IMG/VR virus record: IMGVR_UViG_3300031586_000003
Location: 1-54,571 of that record
DNA length: 54,571 nt
Strand: one strand, 5' to 3'
Source of the DNA: a virus
Taxonomy: Duplodnaviria > Caudoviricetes
The notes beneath the pieces were generated by a model. The model was given only the letters and a program-made list of their open reading frames with translations. It was not told where the DNA came from and did not search any database. Position numbers and translations under genes: made by a program. Of this stretch, positions 2,740 through 20,269 are shown in pieces (positions within the stretch are counted from its first letter, which is position 1; the number at the start of each line of letters is the position of its first letter).

Positions 2740-3037
2740 CTTAGTTGTCACCTCCCGTGACATACTAGGAAGGACAACCATCGCTACTTTCTGGCATCTC
2801 TGGTATTGTGTTCACCGCCTGGCTTGCCAGCCTCCAGCGATTACTATGCTTTACCTGATACCTCTAATTTCGGAATAGTCGCTTTCCCGTTATCCCCTTT
2901 TTTTCAAAGAGCGGTTTTCCTTAGTGGAGGTGGAGAGAATTGCACTCTCGTCCTCGGCAGACGCTTCGGCCTTTCTCCGAGTCGACCTTTTTCACCCCCG
3001 ATTATGGTTCAGGCCATAAACATTGCTGTTCTCTCAT

Positions 3038-4873
3038 TTATTCCACCTTCCCACGTGCCTTATCTATCATCTTCCTGGTCTTTTCTTGCTCTTCAATCAT
3101 CTTGGCAAAATGCGTCTGTAAACTATTCTTAACTATATCCTGAACGTTTTGTTCGTTTAAATTGACTTTTTTATCCGTCTGTTTAGGACTTTCTTTAATT
3201 AAATCTAAATCGACCTCTTCTGCTTTCGGGGGTTCAGTCGCTGTCAAGAGAGTTTTTAGAGGGGGTATAGCAGCTTCCATACTAGCCAGACAGTCCTGAA
3301 TGAGCTTGCGGTTCTTCGAGGAGAGGACACGGCCTTCCTTGAGGGATTTGAGCTCCTCTTCTATCTTGTTTAACTGCTCGGTCGTTCTGTCGAATAGCTC
3401 TCTTGTGATTTGTTGTTCTCTTTCGGTTTGCTTCAGTTCTTCCTTTGTTAGTATATTAACTTCTACGTCCCATTTTTTACAGAACTCAGTAACATCTTCG
3501 TAAGTAGGGTCGCTCTCATATAGCTCTTTCCACGCTTTTTCTAGTTTACTTTTGTCTGAGGAATTGAGTGGATTTTTCAGCTTTATAACTGCATTATCCA
3601 GTTGAATCTCTAATTCGTTCTCTTCCAACTCAACCACCTCCCCGTTGCCGTATATATCCTCCCTTTCATCCTTTAGGAAATCAAAGCTATTTAGATTATC
3701 CGTTGATTCCTGCCCTGGCCCTGGCCTTCCTACACGGCGCATAGTCCCCCCGCACTTAGGGCATTTTAAGTCCTTACAGTGCTTGTCGGAGGTTAGTTTG
3801 TGACCACACTTAATACATTCGCAGTTATATTTTGCCTTCTCATCCCAATCCTTATAATATTCCTCTCCACCATATAAAACTGCTATACCTTCCTTGTCGG
3901 TGAGAGTGTTTACAGTTTCATAAATCTTAACTTCCTTCCCGTGCTCCTCTACCCACTTCTTCGCCTTCGCCATCGTCCAGTTATAAGGAGCTTTCTTGCT
4001 GAATATGTAAGTCCGAATTTTCTTTATTTTTCCGCAGTAAAGAGCCGTTATCCCCTGCTTTTCTGATATGGTGATAGTAGCCGTCACCTTGCAGTCTCTC
4101 ACGGGAATACGGATCTGGTCGTCGGTCTCCTCGGGTTTGGTGATTAAATCGCTTGAATTGTAAACAACATTATCATAGTCATTATCTAATCCCTCAATAG
4201 CACACTCATCACCAATACACTCAATAATTTCTTCCTTCAGCTTCTCCGATTTTATCAGCCCCTTCGCCACCATCTCGGTCAGGGCCTCGCGGTTGGAGGG
4301 GATCATAACCCCCGAATATTCTAACAATTCCCATTTTGTATATTTGCGTCTGGGTCTAATGTCAGCTTCTCCTTCTTTAGCTTCACCTTTCCTCTCGAGC
4401 TCTTCCCACTTCAAAGGAATGAAACCAATACTCCAACTATTCAGCGCTGGGCCAGTACCAGCAACATCATCAGTAAACATATGATAAAGCTCTTCATTGA
4501 TAGCAGGACGTTTAAGAAATATCGTCTTTGCTAAAAGCCCCCTTTTACCGTTTTTAGTAGCTTTTTTAATCCACATACTCTTGCCCATAGGGAGTCCTCG
4601 ATAATCATGTCCATAAGGAACAGTCTTATTGTAGTGTTTAAGAATTGCTCCATCCGGGTCGATTATCTCATTATCCCTATCTACAGTTTCCATATTGATG
4701 AAACTAATCACTGCCCTTTCCTTCTCAACCGTCTCAATCTTCTCACTTATGACTCCCTTCTTTATCAGCTCCAAATCCTCGATGTCGATATCGTGCTCTT
4801 TTGATAAAACCTCAGCCCGCTCGGGGTATAAGTCCTTGAGCTTGAGCCGCTCTGTCACAAAGTCCTTAGTCAT
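3038..4873 (-). CDS. HK97-family prohead protease with inserted domains and C-terminal coiled-coil scaffold
   Basis: VDRDNEII, YGHDY, SWSIGF, ELLEYSGVMIPSN motifs; internal CxC..CxxC Zn ribbon; KEGRVLSSKN scaffold-like tail. Confidence 0.9.
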   Translation of the reverse strand: MTKDFVTERLKLKDLYPERAEVLSKEHDIDIEDLELIKKGVISEKIETVEKERAVISFINMETVDRDNEIIDPDGAILKHYNKTVPYGHDYRGLPMGKSMWIKKATKNGKRGLLAKTIFLKRPAINEELYHMFTDDVAGTGPALNSWSIGFIPLKWEELERKGEAKEGEADIRPRRKYTKWELLEYSGVMIPSNREALTEMVAKGLIKSEKLKEEIIECIGDECAIEGLDNDYDNVVYNSSDLITKPEETDDQIRIPVRDCKVTATITISEKQGITALYCGKIKKIRTYIFSKKAPYNWTMAKAKKWVEEHGKEVKIYETVNTLTDKEGIAVLYGGEEYYKDWDEKAKYNCECIKCGHKLTSDKHCKDLKCPKCGGTMRRVGRPGPGQESTDNLNSFDFLKDEREDIYGNGEVVELEENELEIQLDNAVIKLKNPLNSSDKSKLEKAWKELYESDPTYEDVTEFCKKWDVEVNILTKEELKQTEREQQITRELFDRTTEQLNKIEEELKSLKEGRVLSSKNRKLIQDCLASMEAAIPPLKTLLTATEPPKAEEVDLDLIKESPKQTDKKVNLNEQNVQDIVKNSLQTHFAKMIEEQEKTRKMIDKARGKVE

Positions 4874-5118
4874 TTATTATCATCTCCATTAGATTGTTTT
4901 ATTATTAAAATCCTTCCATCTTGTAAATTAATATGACCATCTTCCTTACCATGTCCACAACAGGAGCCCCGCATATCAATTCCCCCTTCTTGGAGAGCTT
5001 TGACCAGTGAAGCGATACACGAATCAATTGCTTTCCATCTCCAATGAACTTTACCAGTTCGGTCGAGATCAGCGGGGATTTTAACCTTTAATAGTATGGT
5101 CTGACCCCATTTGCACAT
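4870..5118 (-). CDS. Hypothetical protein (IDSCIA...SCCGHG family)
   Basis: ORF track; overlaps the protease start. Confidence 0.6.
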   Translation of the reverse strand: MCKWGQTILLKVKIPADLDRTGKVHWRWKAIDSCIASLVKALQEGGIDMRGSCCGHGKEDGHINLQDGRILIIKQSNGDDNK

Positions 5119-5122
5119 AGAT

Positions 5123-5356
5123 TTAATCTAAGGTTGCGGGTTTTGCTAAACCATAGTTGTAGAAATAATGCCATACAATTTCTGCGTCTTTGCCAGTAAA
5201 TTCTACCCATTCATTAGCTCCACCAAACAGCACGTAAATAATAGGGTCTTCAGGGTGATATCCAGAGCTAACTCTCTTTCTCTTTTCAATATGCGACACT
5301 TTTTCAGGATCAATAAGAACCTCGTTGTCGCCTTGGGGGAATCTCACAAGTTTCAT
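5123..5356 (-). CDS. Hypothetical protein
   Basis: ORF with GGAGAGG RBS. Confidence 0.6.
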   Translation of the reverse strand: MKLVRFPQGDNEVLIDPEKVSHIEKRKRVSSGYHPEDPIIYVLFGGANEWVEFTGKDAEIVWHYFYNYGLAKPATLD

Positions 5357-5368
5357 AATCCTCTCCTG

Positions 5369-5542
5369 TTATTTTGGTGTATAATATTCGGATAACTCAC
5401 GGGAAAATTCCTCGGCAACTTGCACCCAGCCCAAACCACCACACCCGTGGCAGGTCACTTTATATCCTATGCTATAACTTCTTTCATCCCTAGGGAAAAT
5501 TGCGCCACCTCCATTGCATATTGGGCAAACTTCTGCGTGCAT
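5369..5542 (-). CDS. Small DnaJ-like zinc-finger protein (57 aa, not in ORF track)
   Basis: MHAEVCPICNGGG...TCHGCGGLGW; AAGGAG RBS. Confidence 0.65.
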   Translation of the reverse strand: MHAEVCPICNGGGAIFPRDERSYSIGYKVTCHGCGGLGWVQVAEEFSRELSEYYTPK

Positions 5543-5563
5543 TCTATTTCTCCTTTCTTATAA

Positions 5564-6138
5564 GGGGGCTGGCAGGATTTTTGCATACCTGCAATTCCCA
5601 GGATCACTGCATATCCATTTTCTTGATAGATAATGGATTACAAGGAAATACCCTCAACTGGAGTCCTCAGCATTTGCCATACCCCTCCAGCGAAGTACCT
5701 TAGCCCGTGATCAGGCTTGCCCATACGCTTCTCAAGAATAGATAATGCCTTTTTAGCCTTTTCCTTTTTGATTATTAGAAAAGGTAAAAGCGCTATCAAA
5801 ATTGTTTGCACTGCCTTTTGAGGATTAACAATCCAAAAATACATTGTTGTTTTGACTAATTTATTTTTGCTTCTGACTCTGACTAAACCTTTGCAAAATT
5901 TTTCACTCATCCAGTCAAGCATTTCTCTATTTGAATTGTAAATTTCCATTCGGCAACGAGGGTTATTTGGTCTCCTATAATGTTCTTGAATAACAATACT
6001 ACCCTCTCCGTCCAAAATGCCTGCGGTATAAGCCAATTCTGCTTCGGTTAGTTTTGGTAATGTGTATTCTTCGAACTCTCCAGCTTTTGGCATTATTCCT
6101 CCTCAAAAAGCGTATGGGGGTTTTTCAGTCACAGCCCC
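5564..6138 (-). ncRNA. tRNA-like element A enclosing a LAGLIDADG ORF
   Basis: 5' GGGGCTG-TG-ACTG (6138-6126) ... CAGT ... GCAGG-TATGCAAAAAT-CCTGC-CAGCCCC (5592-5565); 17-bp stem 6118-6102/5736-5720 loops out most of the ORF. Confidence 0.7.
5638..6093 (-). CDS. Single-motif LAGLIDADG homing endonuclease
   Basis: LAYTAGILDGEGSI motif, LLPFLIIKKEKA C-terminal signature; GAGGAGG RBS. Confidence 0.9.
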   Translation of the reverse strand: MPKAGEFEEYTLPKLTEAELAYTAGILDGEGSIVIQEHYRRPNNPRCRMEIYNSNREMLDWMSEKFCKGLVRVRSKNKLVKTTMYFWIVNPQKAVQTILIALLPFLIIKKEKAKKALSILEKRMGKPDHGLRYFAGGVWQMLRTPVEGISL

Positions 6139-6493
6139 AAATTGTCAAATGATAATTGCTATTTTTTCAGTTATGAACCACACGCCAAATCTTGGCCGGC
6201 AGTCATAAACATCCAACTGAACACCCAAAACATCAAATAATTGCAATTGAATATGAAAGCATCTCCTAAGGTGCAGCCAAAACCTAATCTTGGGTTTATC
6301 GATATAAATATCCATTCTAGTCTTTAAGTAAGTCCTTAATCAACATTATCCCTGCCATACCAGATAAAACCATTAAAATTCCAATACCCATTAAAAGAAA
6401 CTGTTTATATCCTGCTCCAAAAAGACTTAAAGCTAGACCTATTACTGTAACCCAGAAACAAAGCGCTGCCTTCTTAGTCATATACTTCTCCTT

Positions 6494-7075
6494 TTATTCA
6501 ATCAAAATCGGTATTAAAATAAATGATACCTTCCTATGCACTTCCCTGTGGCAAGTCTGGCATAGTGTAATACCATTATTAGTATCATATCTTAACTCAG
6601 GAAAATCCTTGAATGACTTGATATGATGAGCATTTAAATTACCGCCTTTGTCGTCCCCACAGAGTTGGCAAGTATAGCTATCTCGCTCATATACGGCTTC
6701 ACGCCATTGTCTATACTCTGAGCGACTCCAAGCTCTCTTATAAAGAATAGTCAACCCATGTTTGAATTGAGGACTTAAAGAGCCAACCTTGCCAAACATC
6801 GGATTTTTATTGCCAATCATCTGTTCAGCTTGTTTCTTTATTGATGGATGAGTGCGCTTATTTAATCCCTTACTCCAAGTAGGTTTACCTCGTCGATTGG
6901 GTAGTCCAAATTGCCTTACTTTCTCGTTTGCCTTCTGAGTAATACTAAATTTATCTCTTATCCCATTAGCATATTCATAATTCATTTGACATTCACCATT
7001 ACAATAATTCCGTCCCTTTGCCCGACAGGGTCTTCGTTCAAGTTCATTACCACAATAAGCACAATTTACTTTCAT
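6494..7075 (-). CDS. HNH homing endonuclease with Zn finger and NUMOD3-like motifs
   Basis: CAYCG..C..C, GNKNPMFGK, WREAVYERDSYTCQLCG...AHHIK...NGITLCQTCH. Confidence 0.9.
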   Translation of the reverse strand: MKVNCAYCGNELERRPCRAKGRNYCNGECQMNYEYANGIRDKFSITQKANEKVRQFGLPNRRGKPTWSKGLNKRTHPSIKKQAEQMIGNKNPMFGKVGSLSPQFKHGLTILYKRAWSRSEYRQWREAVYERDSYTCQLCGDDKGGNLNAHHIKSFKDFPELRYDTNNGITLCQTCHREVHRKVSFILIPILIE

Positions 7076-7085
7076 ATTTCCTCAC

Positions 7086-8066
7086 TCATTCTATCAAAAT
7101 GGCTATCAGACTGCATCTGCACGATGGGTGCAACGGAGGATATGGCATCTCGCCCTCTGTATAATCAAAATTCATATCTATATCCGATACATCGAAAGAC
7201 TGGCCCAGCTTTGCTGTTCTCGGCTTACCTGAAGTCTTACCGCCCATTTCTTCGCAAGACGTGCAAGTCCTCTCATCGAAGGCAGTTAGCCACTCCTTCC
7301 CTTCCACTACCCCTGATTGTATATAAGCCTCCTCTGCGCCAAAATTGCTTGCTCGTATTGTCTCAGTGCGGGCGATCATGGTTGACCTTTGCCTATCGGC
7401 AAAATCAAATACCTTACTTACTCGCTTCCTTAAGTGAGGAATGCTCTCCCCTTCTCCTATTCCTTCCTGTAGGGTTTTCTTTAGGCTGTCTACAGTAGCT
7501 TTATTTACTTCCTCAGAGTATTTCTTAATAAACTTCTTCTGGAATTGAACCGCTGCGGGTGATGAAATATCAAAATCAATCCCTACCGCTAAATCTGCTA
7601 GCGTAGATACTCCTACGCTCTCCATAACCCCACCGATAAAGGGTTTCCCTTCCTTGCCGAACCGCTCAACCCACAGCTTCTCATTGAACAGCCAATCCTC
7701 TTCCCAGCCCTTCTTGACGGCTTTAGGAGAATGCTTCATGTTAGCGAGGACTTCCTTCTCCTGCTTGCCGAACAGCTCCTTGAGCTTAGTAATGAATTTG
7801 CGCTCATAGGGGGATTGGCGCTTTATGAAGAGCTGCCATTTTTGCTCTCGCAGTTTTTCGTCGTTTTTTGGAGACCCCGGAGATCCTGGTATTGAATTTC
7901 CCTCTCGTGATTTTCCGTCATTAATTGGACTGTCTCCAATCTTCTCGGCTATTTCTCTAGCGACATCCTTAACCAAGTCCTTAAACTCCTCTTTTTCCTT
8001 TATCAAAAAGACTATTTCATCAGCTATTTGCTCAATTACTTTATCGGTGAAAAAATTCGCTATCAA
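7086..8066 (-). CDS. Head morphogenesis protein (Mu gpF/SPP1 gp7 family)
   Basis: IARTET, KEWLTAFDERTC, PPLHPSCRC motifs. Confidence 0.92.
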   Translation of the reverse strand: MIANFFTDKVIEQIADEIVFLIKEKEEFKDLVKDVAREIAEKIGDSPINDGKSREGNSIPGSPGSPKNDEKLREQKWQLFIKRQSPYERKFITKLKELFGKQEKEVLANMKHSPKAVKKGWEEDWLFNEKLWVERFGKEGKPFIGGVMESVGVSTLADLAVGIDFDISSPAAVQFQKKFIKKYSEEVNKATVDSLKKTLQEGIGEGESIPHLRKRVSKVFDFADRQRSTMIARTETIRASNFGAEEAYIQSGVVEGKEWLTAFDERTCTSCEEMGGKTSGKPRTAKLGQSFDVSDIDMNFDYTEGEMPYPPLHPSCRCSLIAILIE

Positions 8067-14663: not shown

Positions 14664-14868
14664 GTTGCTTATTTATACTATTAAATGGTTATATACACCA
14701 AAAAAAGTGTATTAGGCAGAAAGCAAGACGAACATAGAACAAAGTCATTGTTGTTATAGCATTTCTGCCTATATTTAATAAAAAACGAACAGAAAAAAAT
14801 CTCCTTTTAAGATTTTCCGCTGTTCGTGTTAGTCTTTTTGTTAGTCGATGTTTATGTTCGTCAATTAC

Positions 14869-14896
14869 AGTATATACTAAAAATTTAAAGTGTCAA
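14869..14896 (-). promoter_or_regulatory. Sigma70 promoter driving a structured leader of the sigma-4 gene
   Basis: TTGACA-16 nt-TATACT. Confidence 0.75.
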
Positions 14897-14951
14897 GGGG
14901 AAGAGCAAGTGGCTCTTAGATATACATTGACATTTTAGCGTCTTCCCCTAA

Positions 14952-15084
14952 AGTGGCTCTGGCAGGATACCCCTCCCTGCGTCCCTATCATAGCTTTTCC
15001 AATCCGCTCAAGAAAAGTTTCTAGGTTCATCAAGATTCTGGATTGGTTTCTTTCCCAAGCATCCTAGAATGCCACAGAGCCACT
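14952..15084 (-). ncRNA. tRNA-like element B
   Basis: AGTGGCTCTG/CAGAGCCACT stem, TG, GCAT-TCTAGG-ATGC D-like arm, CCAATCC/GGATTGG arm, GCAGG-GAGGGGTAT-CCTGC T-like arm. Confidence 0.7.
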
Positions 15085-19483: not shown

Positions 19484-20269
19484 TTAATCGGCGACGTGGT
19501 AGGGAGCGGTTGGTTGTGGTTGTTTGGCATTGCTCTTTTCCTTTAAAAAATTTTCCAATGGTTTATTAATACTCAAAAACCTATCTAATCCTCTTTGTAA
19601 AAAATCTCTCAATTCCCATTTATGAGTCCAAAAGTATTTATCATCTTCCAAAATAGTCTTATAGTTTTGCATGGCATCTCTAATTTCCTTTTCTGAATAC
19701 TTCTCAAGAACAGCATTGAGGTTGGGTTTAAACTTTTCTCTATCCCTGTGTACCATAATTTTTAGTGAGTTCCAAAAATCAAAAAGACTATATATGTTTT
19801 CTTTCCTTTTCTTTCTTTCTTTAGACGCTCTGGAATTCTTATCATTACTATCTTTTTTTGAGGTCGAGGTTGACGTTTCGTCAAGTTTTACTTGACGTTT
19901 TGTCAAGTTTTTGGTTGACGTTTCGGCAACCTTCATTCTCCATTTTTCGTCAAAGGTTGACATTTCGTCAAGTTGCCATTTTTCATAATCTTTGTGGAAG
20001 TAAATATAACCATTGTTCTCAGCAATTTTTATGATGTTCTTTTTTTCCAGATTAGTTAACGTTTTGGCAACCTTTTCTAGAGGTATTCTTGTGAGATCAG
20101 CTATGTCTTTTTTTTTGAGTCTGGCGTATTTTTGCTTAAATCCATAACTGTATCTAAGAATACAAAGAGTAGCCCTATATTCGTTTTTGTTTAAACCAGC
20201 GCCCATTAAGGCTTCCCATAAATCATTTGCTATCTCTACGTGTCCGTTTTTTGTCTGTGGATTTGCCAT
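19484..20269 (-). CDS. Lambda O-like replication initiator
   Basis: MANPQTKNGHVEIANDLWEAL N-terminus, wHTH, internal iteron-coded linker. Confidence 0.88.
   Translation of the reverse strand: MANPQTKNGHVEIANDLWEALMGAGLNKNEYRATLCILRYSYGFKQKYARLKKKDIADLTRIPLEKVAKTLTNLEKKNIIKIAENNGYIYFHKDYEKWQLDEMSTFDEKWRMKVAETSTKNLTKRQVKLDETSTSTSKKDSNDKNSRASKERKKRKENIYSLFDFWNSLKIMVHRDREKFKPNLNAVLEKYSEKEIRDAMQNYKTILEDDKYFWTHKWELRDFLQRGLDRFLSINKPLENFLKEKSNAKQPQPTAPYHVAD
19870..19971. repeat. Replication origin iterons inside the initiator gene
   Basis: Palindromic TTGACRTTTYGKCAA at 19870, 19892, 19915, 19957, a half site ~19945 and a variant ~20056; AT-rich tract at 19790-19860. Confidence 0.8.

Follow-up and report, generated by a model that had tools for sequence, protein, structure and literature searches.

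A LAGLIDADG homing-endonuclease cassette without an intron, probably inserted into a divergent manA-family leader RNA of a salt-marsh phage

Homing endonuclease genes are known in self-splicing introns, in inteins and as free-standing genes between other genes. Among the LAGLIDADG enzymes, I-CreI and I-MsoI are encoded within self-splicing group I introns of organellar 23S ribosomal RNA genes. The manA RNAs (RF01745) are described as riboswitch or cis-regulatory candidates of marine phages with no known function (Weinberg et al. 2010, PMC2864571; PMC9964418), and the first of these papers places them in potential 5' untranslated regions (UTRs) of phage genes (PMC2864571). Other manA RNAs are reported to assemble into decamers and a 60-mer cage (2026 preprint 10.64898/2026.07.01.735769). 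Here we describe a locus, termed element A, of the IMG/VR virus record IMGVR_UViG_3300031586_000003 (Duplodnaviria; Caudoviricetes), positions 1 to 54,571; this whole stretch of 54,571 nucleotides (nt) is called the window. The record represents a complete phage of about 54 kb with a terminal direct repeat of 127 nt (1-127 = 54445-54571), nearly all genes of the window lie on the minus strand, and the sequencing runs containing this stretch are salt-marsh metagenomes. It is likely, in our assessment, that an intron-less LAGLIDADG homing-endonuclease cassette has invaded the DNA of a manA-family leader RNA in this phage.

Element A consists of two RNA segments with the cassette between them, and its main parts are as follows.

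6124..6138, minus strand: 5' segment of the manA-like RNA (closing-stem 5' strand 6138-6132, then UG and ACUGAA)
5719..6123, minus strand: homing-endonuclease cassette (the insert), 405 nt, replacing the dinucleotide TT; limits from alignment A2 and the joint in run X8
5565..5718, minus strand: 3' segment of the manA-like RNA (second hairpin 5717-5702, internal helices, 3' hairpin 5592-5572, closing-stem strand 5571-5565)
5638..6093, minus strand: LAGLIDADG homing-endonuclease open reading frame (ORF), 151 amino acids, of I-CreI/I-MsoI type by profile, Foldseek and dimer model
6098..6104, minus strand: ribosome-binding site GAGGAGG, read from the sequence and paired in the minimum-energy fold

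Read on the minus strand, the 5' half is GGGGCTG-TG-ACTG at 6138..6126, or GGGGCTG-TG-ACTGAA when taken to its end (6138..6124). The 3' half runs from CAGT to GCAGG (5592-5588), CCTGC (5576-5572) and CAGCCCC (5571-5565). The 3' hairpin, GCAGG / 11-nt loop / CCTGC (5592..5572), stands flush against the CAGCCCC strand of the closing stem (5571..5565). An earlier note, made from the letters of the window, had placed the ORF and its ribosome-binding site between these halves, and the coordinates were confirmed on the minus strand. The further stems that it listed, AGCC/GGCT, CTGGAG/CTCCAG and ATCCATT/AATGGAT together with the pair GATCAC/GTGATC, are all present. Folding of the full 582-nt RNA yields -171.2 kcal/mol (z = -5.4), which none of 100 shuffles matches, and the minimum-energy fold includes the closing stem, the duplex at the insert ends and an AGCCUG/CGGGCU hairpin.

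The limits of the insert were obtained from alleles that lack it. Viral contigs were scanned for the 3' hairpin of element A, which yielded two contigs, L116 and L117, each with an uninterrupted, ORF-less copy of 167-170 nt. In alignment A2, the window is identical to both for 15 nt 5' of the insert (to GACTGAA; the entire segment 6124..6138, about positions 14-30 of the manA model in L117) and for 23 nt 3' of it (from AAGCC). Furthermore, in X8, another salt-marsh DNA run, not flagged as a possible source of the record, one contig joins 5718 to 6124 and omits the 405 nt, with two letters between, and the sequence of this joint equals the insert-free allele of L116 and L117. X8 also contains insert-bearing pieces (records 16 and 17). 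The site is polymorphic for the presence of the insert, and alleles with and without it appear to coexist. ORF-less relatives, as inferred in the earlier note, thus exist, and L117 is a close relative that is syntenic with the window (portal-head fusion, HNH gene, small ORF, RNA, protease-capsid gene). The cassette contributes no stop codon in use, and no sign of a promoter of its own was seen in it. It resembles the free-standing homing genes of phage T4 (seg, mob) in being intron-less, in a phage, polymorphic between close relatives and situated between structural-gene modules. Unlike those genes, which lie between protein genes, it is embedded in the gene of a structured RNA, whose transcript it presumably shares and whose sequence supplies its stop codon.

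Two further observations concern these sequences. One X8 contig omits 69 nt (5612-5680) within the manA part, and another adds two C after 5679 and 5680; since the contigs vary at 5612-5680, the variable arm of the element A RNA differs between strains. A scan with the junction pattern returned one locus, L240, which was rejected as a chance match inside a GC-rich coding region.

The identity of the RNA follows from the ORF-less alleles as well. Against RF01745 they score 50.9 bits (L117:6743-6919) and 50.0 bits (L116; G001:28865-29051), and they align across model positions 1-192, i.e., over its full length. The expectation value (E) is 2e-10 for the 30 kb searched, or 2.6e-14 and 1.1e-13 per record, and none of the 14 control genomes matched the model at E <= 1. 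The conserved manA blocks GUGACUGAAU.AA, UAAGGU and GGUAU.CA..AAUCC are found in them. Shared features include the closing stem and the UG after it, the loop ACUGAAU.AA, a hairpin with UAAGGU immediately downstream, and a 3' hairpin with the loop GGUAU.CA..AAUCC stacked on the closing stem. Additionally, a sequence profile built from 39 manA sequences finds the window itself (nhmmer, 5717..5563, E 3.2e-8). A ribosome-binding site with its ATG follows 12-40 nt downstream of the RNA in all three sequences (window, L116, L117), a putative 5' UTR position in phages. Element A therefore resembles manA in its full-length alignment, its conserved blocks, the hairpin flush against the closing stem and its place as a phage 5' leader before a gene. 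The differences are the lower scores of the ORF-less alleles, unlike central helices, an origin in salt-marsh contigs rather than T4-like cyanophages, and the 405-nt ORF cassette, by which none of the 35 canonical copies examined is split. On the manA consensus, the insertion point falls in the conserved internal loop that immediately precedes the second hairpin and not in a variable terminal loop, and the expanded D-loop in which the earlier note had seen the ORF has to be given up for this position. The manA family is thereby extended by a divergent subfamily in salt-marsh phages, located before the capsid module, and by a natural 405-nt insertion variant, which could show which part of manA tolerates cargo.

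The protein belongs to the I-CreI/I-MsoI fold family. The ORF starts with ATG at 6093, stops at TAA 5640..5638 and carries the motif LAYTAGILDGEGS, whose residues D28, G29, E30, G31 and S32 are invariant in 7 of 7 homologues. A PxLIIKK block is likewise invariant, the ORF is intact, and the acidic residue of the motif (E30), which we take to be the catalytic equivalent of I-CreI D20, is present. A word-index search gave only six homologues, the closest being P0002 (86%) and P0003 (49%), and five of the six have a precomputed match to PF00961 (LAGLIDADG_1). A profile of the seven sequences matches single-chain I-MsoI (3e-19) and I-CreI (3e-10) in the PDB. The AlphaFold model has a mean predicted local distance difference test score (pLDDT) of 71.4, with core blocks mostly at 84-93, and its order of helices (H) and strands (E), H17-29, E, E, H, E, E, H, H to residue 124, contains the alpha-beta-beta-alpha-beta-beta-alpha fold. 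In a Foldseek search of the PDB, the top 14 among the matches listed are all I-CreI chains, the best with E 1.5e-8, a template-modelling (TM) score of 0.62 and a root-mean-square deviation of 2.3 over 116 columns at about 25% identity.

Moreover, a two-copy model of residues 1-125 scores 0.70 against 0.22 for the best control, with runs agreeing on at least 97% of contacts, a partner pLDDT of at least 81 and residues 17-30, the motif helix, as the interface. Of 30 proteins solved as pairs, 20 reach the dimer mark, as against 1 of 23 solved as single chains; this score shows likeness and not proof, because I-CreI dimers have already been solved. As a single-motif enzyme of I-CreI type, the protein is presumably homodimeric. 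Shared with I-CreI and I-MsoI (PDB 1bp7, 1m5x) are the single motif, a core of about 125 residues, the fold and the dimer through the motif helix, here as modelled; the window enzyme differs in being intron-less, in a 26-residue read-through tail and in its identity of only about 25%.

The tail is encoded as follows.

5638..5718, minus strand: last 26 codons and stop of the ORF, manA RNA read through; insert boundary at codon 125/126

Residues 1-125, which form the folded core, derive from the insert, and the boundary between core and tail at 125/126 coincides exactly with the 3' limit of the insert. From there, the ORF runs 26 codons through manA sequence to the first stop. Residues 126-151 have a pLDDT of 29-32 and are predicted to be disordered. 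The ORF-less L117 RNA, translated in the same frame, reads DHGLRYLTGGVRQAVEDSGWRVSP and then stops. The C-terminus of P0002 differs from the tail in the window and matches the L117 translation at 22 of 24 positions, from which it follows that the tail obeys the host RNA sequence and not protein constraint. P0002 is probably nested at the same site, in an L117-like allele.

A long duplex closes the insert at its ends, and its arms are as follows.

6100..6118, minus strand: 5' arm of the insert-closing helix, overlapping GAGGA of the ribosome-binding site
6089..6096, minus strand: second segment of the closing duplex (AUAAUGCC), containing the start codon, with 8 perfect pairs to 5749-5742
5720..5749, minus strand: 3' arm of the closing duplex (5738-5720 and 5749-5742), within the codons for ...KALSILEKRMG

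The earlier note had described a helix of 17 base pairs (bp), 6118-6102 with 5736-5720, that loops out the coding body and covers part of the ribosome-binding site. The helix is real, with 11 perfect Watson-Crick pairs extended using G-U pairs, and it is longer than had been noted: 19 bp (6118-6100 with 5738-5720), a 3x3 internal loop and 8 bp (6096-6089 with 5749-5742), so that the AUG is included. The duplex is set in from the limits of the insert by 5 nt on the 5' side and by 1 nt on the 3' side; the ORF is looped out, and the ribosome-binding site and AUG are buried. Its energy of -40.1 kcal/mol was reached by none of 1000 dinucleotide shuffles of the partner sequence (mean -23.3, standard deviation 2.8, best -36.4). 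The strength of the whole duplex and its position at the insert ends are not expected by chance.

Such an arrangement is reminiscent of ORFs in the peripheral loops of group I introns, where the ORF is likewise closed off by a helix, the host RNA can fold, and the ribosome-binding site and start are buried. The difference is that the host RNA is here no ribozyme and is not spliced as far as its sequence tells, and that the loop is a conserved internal one and not a terminal one. Nevertheless, the insert might be removed or separated at the RNA level, either as an unrecognised intron or by an RNase III-type cut of the 27-bp duplex; in a speculative form of the latter, the endonuclease messenger RNA (mRNA) is released, and a two-piece manA remains held by its closing stem. 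A long and nearly perfect duplex exactly at the insert ends speaks for such removal, as do the manA helices kept by the carrier allele and a distant relative of the enzyme, in contig L007, that adjoins a group I intron (RF00028, 77.2 bits). However, the group I model RF00028, which does detect the intron in L007, finds no core here at the gathering threshold, nor at thresholds relaxed to E <= 5 for the window and to E <= 10 for 5450-6250. In the latter range, no other ribozyme model matched at this relaxed threshold. All but about 30 nt of the insert is coding sequence, and precise excision would remove the stop codon, since the ORF continues into the 3' flank. RNase III cleavage, for its part, is a conjecture drawn solely from the length of the helix. 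Removal at the RNA level is accordingly considered unlikely, and the intron-like system envisaged before is not supported. That the region does not score as a standard group I intron agrees with the earlier note.

Under the preferred reading, a homing cassette in the DNA of a manA-type leader, expression would begin upstream of the RNA.

6149..6177, minus strand: promoter-like site TTCATA, 17 nt, TATCAT, from a consensus scan (9 of 12 positions)

This site (6177..6149) stops about 10 nt upstream of the first paired base of element A and is a consensus match only; from it, the cassette would be transcribed together with the RNA. The closing duplex may bring the manA halves together, so that the RNA could still fold, as with ORFs in group I peripheral loops. 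Since the duplex buries the ribosome-binding site and AUG, the enzyme would be made only from transcripts in which the duplex is open, and translation would be kept low. Ribosomes that translate the tail would have to unwind manA helices, and tail translation and manA folding would be mutually exclusive on one molecule. In phages that infect the same cell, the enzyme, as a homodimer, would cleave the allele without the insert at ...GACTGAA/TT/AAGCC... or close by, and the cassette would be copied in during repair, i.e., homing. The insert splits this putative target site, so the carrier should be immune. A homing gene would here sit directly in a structured non-coding RNA with no splicing element, and yet with an intron-style closing helix and a buried ribosome-binding site and start. 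It would offer a testable example of homing genes colonising folded RNAs before or without the help of a ribozyme, for which the natural pair of alleles with and without the insert is available.

The chimera might go further and act as a working composite or switch. With manA folded or multimeric, the message would be locked; with manA unfolded or the duplex cut, it would be released, leaving a two-piece manA. We regard this extension as rather unlikely. If true, it would represent a natural homing endonuclease colonising a structured RNA other than an intron, a helix-looped ORF could arise on any foldable RNA, and manA assemblies could carry a 400-nt cargo.

Several observations weigh against a homing cassette in a manA-family RNA. 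The ORF-less alleles lie below the RF01745 gathering cut-off (50.9 and 50.0 against 55.2 bits), the interrupted copy in the window reaches only 18 bits, and canonical manA RNAs reach 89-197 bits, which makes element A a divergent subfamily at best. Judged by these scores, just under the cut-off and far below those of canonical copies, it is called a divergent manA-family RNA and not a certified member. The window protein alone falls under the cut-off of PF00961 (14 against 23.1 bits, E 0.097). A bare perfect 11-bp stem is marginal, as 10 of 200 shuffles of the 575 nt have one somewhere, and within the 3' arm an Arg of the window protein is replaced by His in P0002, a change that may affect the helix there. 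The insert-free joint in X8 is a single contig with a depth of 3.7, 23 letters on its short side and 85% likeness, and joints of this type at 85% likeness can stem from relatives. Around the insertion point there is only weak dyad symmetry, with 6 of 11 positions symmetric, a level that 7 of 189 centres attain. The insert also adjoins highly conserved loop nucleotides, and for that reason may well impair the manA RNA.

A rival view is that the insertion is a dead end, with the RNA destroyed, the endonuclease gene decaying or domesticated, and the helix either only silencing translation or fortuitous. The insert abuts conserved manA loop nucleotides, the carrier fragment scores just 18 bits, and homing endonuclease genes are reported to decay commonly once fixed (PMC13619312). 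On the other hand, the ORF is intact with E30 and an invariant PxLIIKK, and an 86%-identical copy exists elsewhere. Both alleles occur, the duplex is far above chance, and compensatory changes keep the manA helices of the carrier: RNAalifold of its manA part with L116 and L117 gave 43 pairs, 4 of them compensatory, from three sequences only. This thin evidence suggests that the carrier's manA part is still structurally constrained, and manA function may be retained. A dead end is possible for the RNA and unlikely for the enzyme, and as an account of the whole locus it appears quite improbable.

Two ORF-less RNAs elsewhere in the window are built on a related plan, and both served as training members of the model R1.

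33903..34021, minus strand: element D, an ORF-less RNA of related architecture, 85.4 bits to R1
14955..15081, minus strand: second D-type element, 69.7 bits to R1, directly after a TTGACA / TATCAT promoter-like site

The resemblance of element D to element A that had been pointed out before is exact in two parts, as the 7-bp closing stem and the GCAGG/CCTGC stem are identical, and element D has no ORF. An orthologue of the second element, not used in training, lies at L117:763-893 (73.7 bits). A scan for the D-type 3' hairpin yielded 35 viral loci (L081-L115), of which 25 were aligned with the two window copies. Excluded were L093, L095, L096, L105, L108, L109 and L113 (no closing stem), L086 and L094, which lack the hairpin or GGUAAG and are probably chance matches, and L082, the same as L081. 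The architecture comprises a 7-bp closing stem, pyrimidine + G, a GCG-UUCUGG-CGC-like hairpin, (A/G)GGUAAG, a variable middle and a flush GCAGGGUGGGGAAUCCUGC hairpin, and most copies stand directly before a ribosome-binding site and ATG. In the alignment, 97.8% of cells are paired. Covariation in the closing stem is partly circular, because this stem was used to define the 5' ends; the independent covariation comes only from the second hairpin, where all 4 pairs covary, and from a single pair in the 3' hairpin. Element A has in common with the D-type a closing stem with pyrimidine + G after it, one hairpin, the motif GGUA and a 3' hairpin that directly abuts the closing stem. R1 fails to detect element A in the window and gives only 15.8 bits on the ORF-less L116 allele, so a common origin is suggested by architecture only. 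No Rfam match to D-type elements was found for eight loci at E <= 10 or in the window at E <= 5. The D-type looks like an undescribed relative of manA, the literature search having covered manA only.

In two jumbo-phage contigs of 145 kb and 269 kb (L081:4872-5039, L082 identical), a D-type element lies inside an array of transfer RNA (tRNA) genes, separated by about 10 nt from the preceding tRNA and just upstream of the following one. The stem shared by elements A and D also recurs in the window as a simple hairpin at 54257-54279 (GGGGCTG ... CAGCCCC, 9-nt loop), directly 5' of a ribosome-binding site. GGGGCTG is enriched in the window, with 18 copies against 6.9 expected and 0 of 100 shuffles reaching 18.

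How general the association of enzyme and RNA is was addressed from both sides. A metagenome scan confirmed 214 relatives of the enzyme, and 80 loci at 27-40% identity were kept; scans of viral contigs with the window protein and with P0003 confirmed no relative. None of the 80 homologue loci has manA-like sequence (nhmmer, E <= 10), and none has a D-type element at E < 0.01; weak D-type matches in L014 and L016 (E 0.1 and 0.67) are about 400 nt away from the ORF. Thus, the flanks of these 80 more distant homologues do not keep the RNA halves, contrary to what the first interpretation would have led one to expect. In L007, a 38%-identical relative (303-1050 region, ORF end 878) lies beside the group I core mentioned above (860-1050), and this intron abuts the ORF, so at least one member of the enzyme family is intron-associated. 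Rfam gathering scores were reached in none of the other 19 of the 20 best homologue loci, and at most of the 25 loci examined for ORF spacing the gene is packed between other ORFs. From the side of the RNA, 49 viral records were chosen by the manA 5' pattern; 36 have a manA match, 35 of them above the cut-off. None of these 35 has a large insert and no match spans more than 212 nt, with the proviso that the selecting pattern excludes inserts at this site. The enzyme lineage seems to live in several contexts, the manA site being a special case of the window's clade. No published endonuclease gene inside manA was found in the literature, where supplementary tables of manA papers might hold cases.

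These results bear directly on the proposal of the earlier note that a tRNA-like RNA and the nuclease form one system, either RNA-associated or RNA-guided, or a tRNA-capped mRNA released by tRNA-processing enzymes. The ORF is physically nested in the RNA, the closing stem with its flush 3' hairpin loosely recalls an acceptor/T stack, and the D-type element inside the tRNA arrays of L081 and L082 would fit as well. Element A itself, however, does not qualify as a tRNA. ARAGORN reports 0 tRNA or transfer-messenger RNA (tmRNA) genes over the window, Rfam at gathering thresholds gives no match over the same range, and no match to the Rfam tRNA model (RF00005) was obtained on element A. It lacks an anticodon arm, its 3' ('T') loop has 11 nt, and the stem is followed by CUUAUAAG and not by CCA; the ORF-less alleles match manA instead. 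Moreover, manA contains no ORF in any of the 35 canonical cases examined, nor in L116 or L117, and the 80 homologue loci are devoid of manA-like sequence and of any convincing D-type element. LAGLIDADG enzymes read DNA through protein contacts. HEARO or omega RNAs with IscB offer a parallel in that an RNA structure encloses a nuclease ORF. They differ in the nuclease family, and the RNA there is an obligate guide conserved across homologues, against 0 of 80 loci here. A single RNA-nuclease system is therefore most improbable at this locus.

The genes next to element A are the following.

7075..6494, minus strand: HNH endonuclease gene (PF01844, E 3.9e-9), one small ORF upstream of element A
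6481..6317, minus strand: 54-aa (amino acid) ORF between the HNH gene and element A
5369..5542, minus strand: first downstream gene, 57 aa, CxxC zinc-ribbon-like, its ribosome-binding site about 12 nt past the RNA

Pfam searches with the 57-aa downstream protein (5369..5542) gave sub-threshold matches only. Three small ORFs lie downstream of element A and are followed by a protease-capsid fusion gene (4873..3038, minus strand). A blastn search of window 4800-7100 against the phage collection found no match. The HNH gene is kept in L117, and two unlike nuclease genes (HNH and LAGLIDADG) fall within a span of 1.5 kb in the window. The three small ORFs that separate the RNA from the capsid gene in the window are all missing from L117. 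One X8 contig omits window 4888-5383 (496 nt) and has 16 other letters instead, by which most of the ORFs 5356..5123 and 5118..4870 is lost; this skip is a second insertion-deletion polymorphism close to the capsid gene.

Just downstream of the protease-capsid gene, a 78-nt stretch (2922-2999, minus strand) gives an end-to-end match to the Rfam tmRNA model at 43 bits (cut-off 47; E 7.7e-14), the whole mRNA-like middle being absent. Its stem, GGGGGUG/CACCUCC, includes a G-U as third pair, its T-like loop measures 7 nt, and it ends in ACUA instead of ACCA; ARAGORN makes no call there. This element may be a mimic of the tRNA-like domain of tmRNA. A 40-nt repeat occurs in three copies (14860-14899, 27133-27172 and 28138-28177), which on the minus strand form a TTGACA ... 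TATACT promoter-like unit. At 19867-19974, four 21-nt repeats are spaced by 22-42 nt, each an imperfect palindrome centred on TTGACGTTTCGTCAA; they look like iterons or operators. Finally, a G+C-rich repeat with a period of 9 nt extends over about 240 nt at 51980-52221, consistent with a collagen-like Gly-X-Y stretch of a minus-strand gene.

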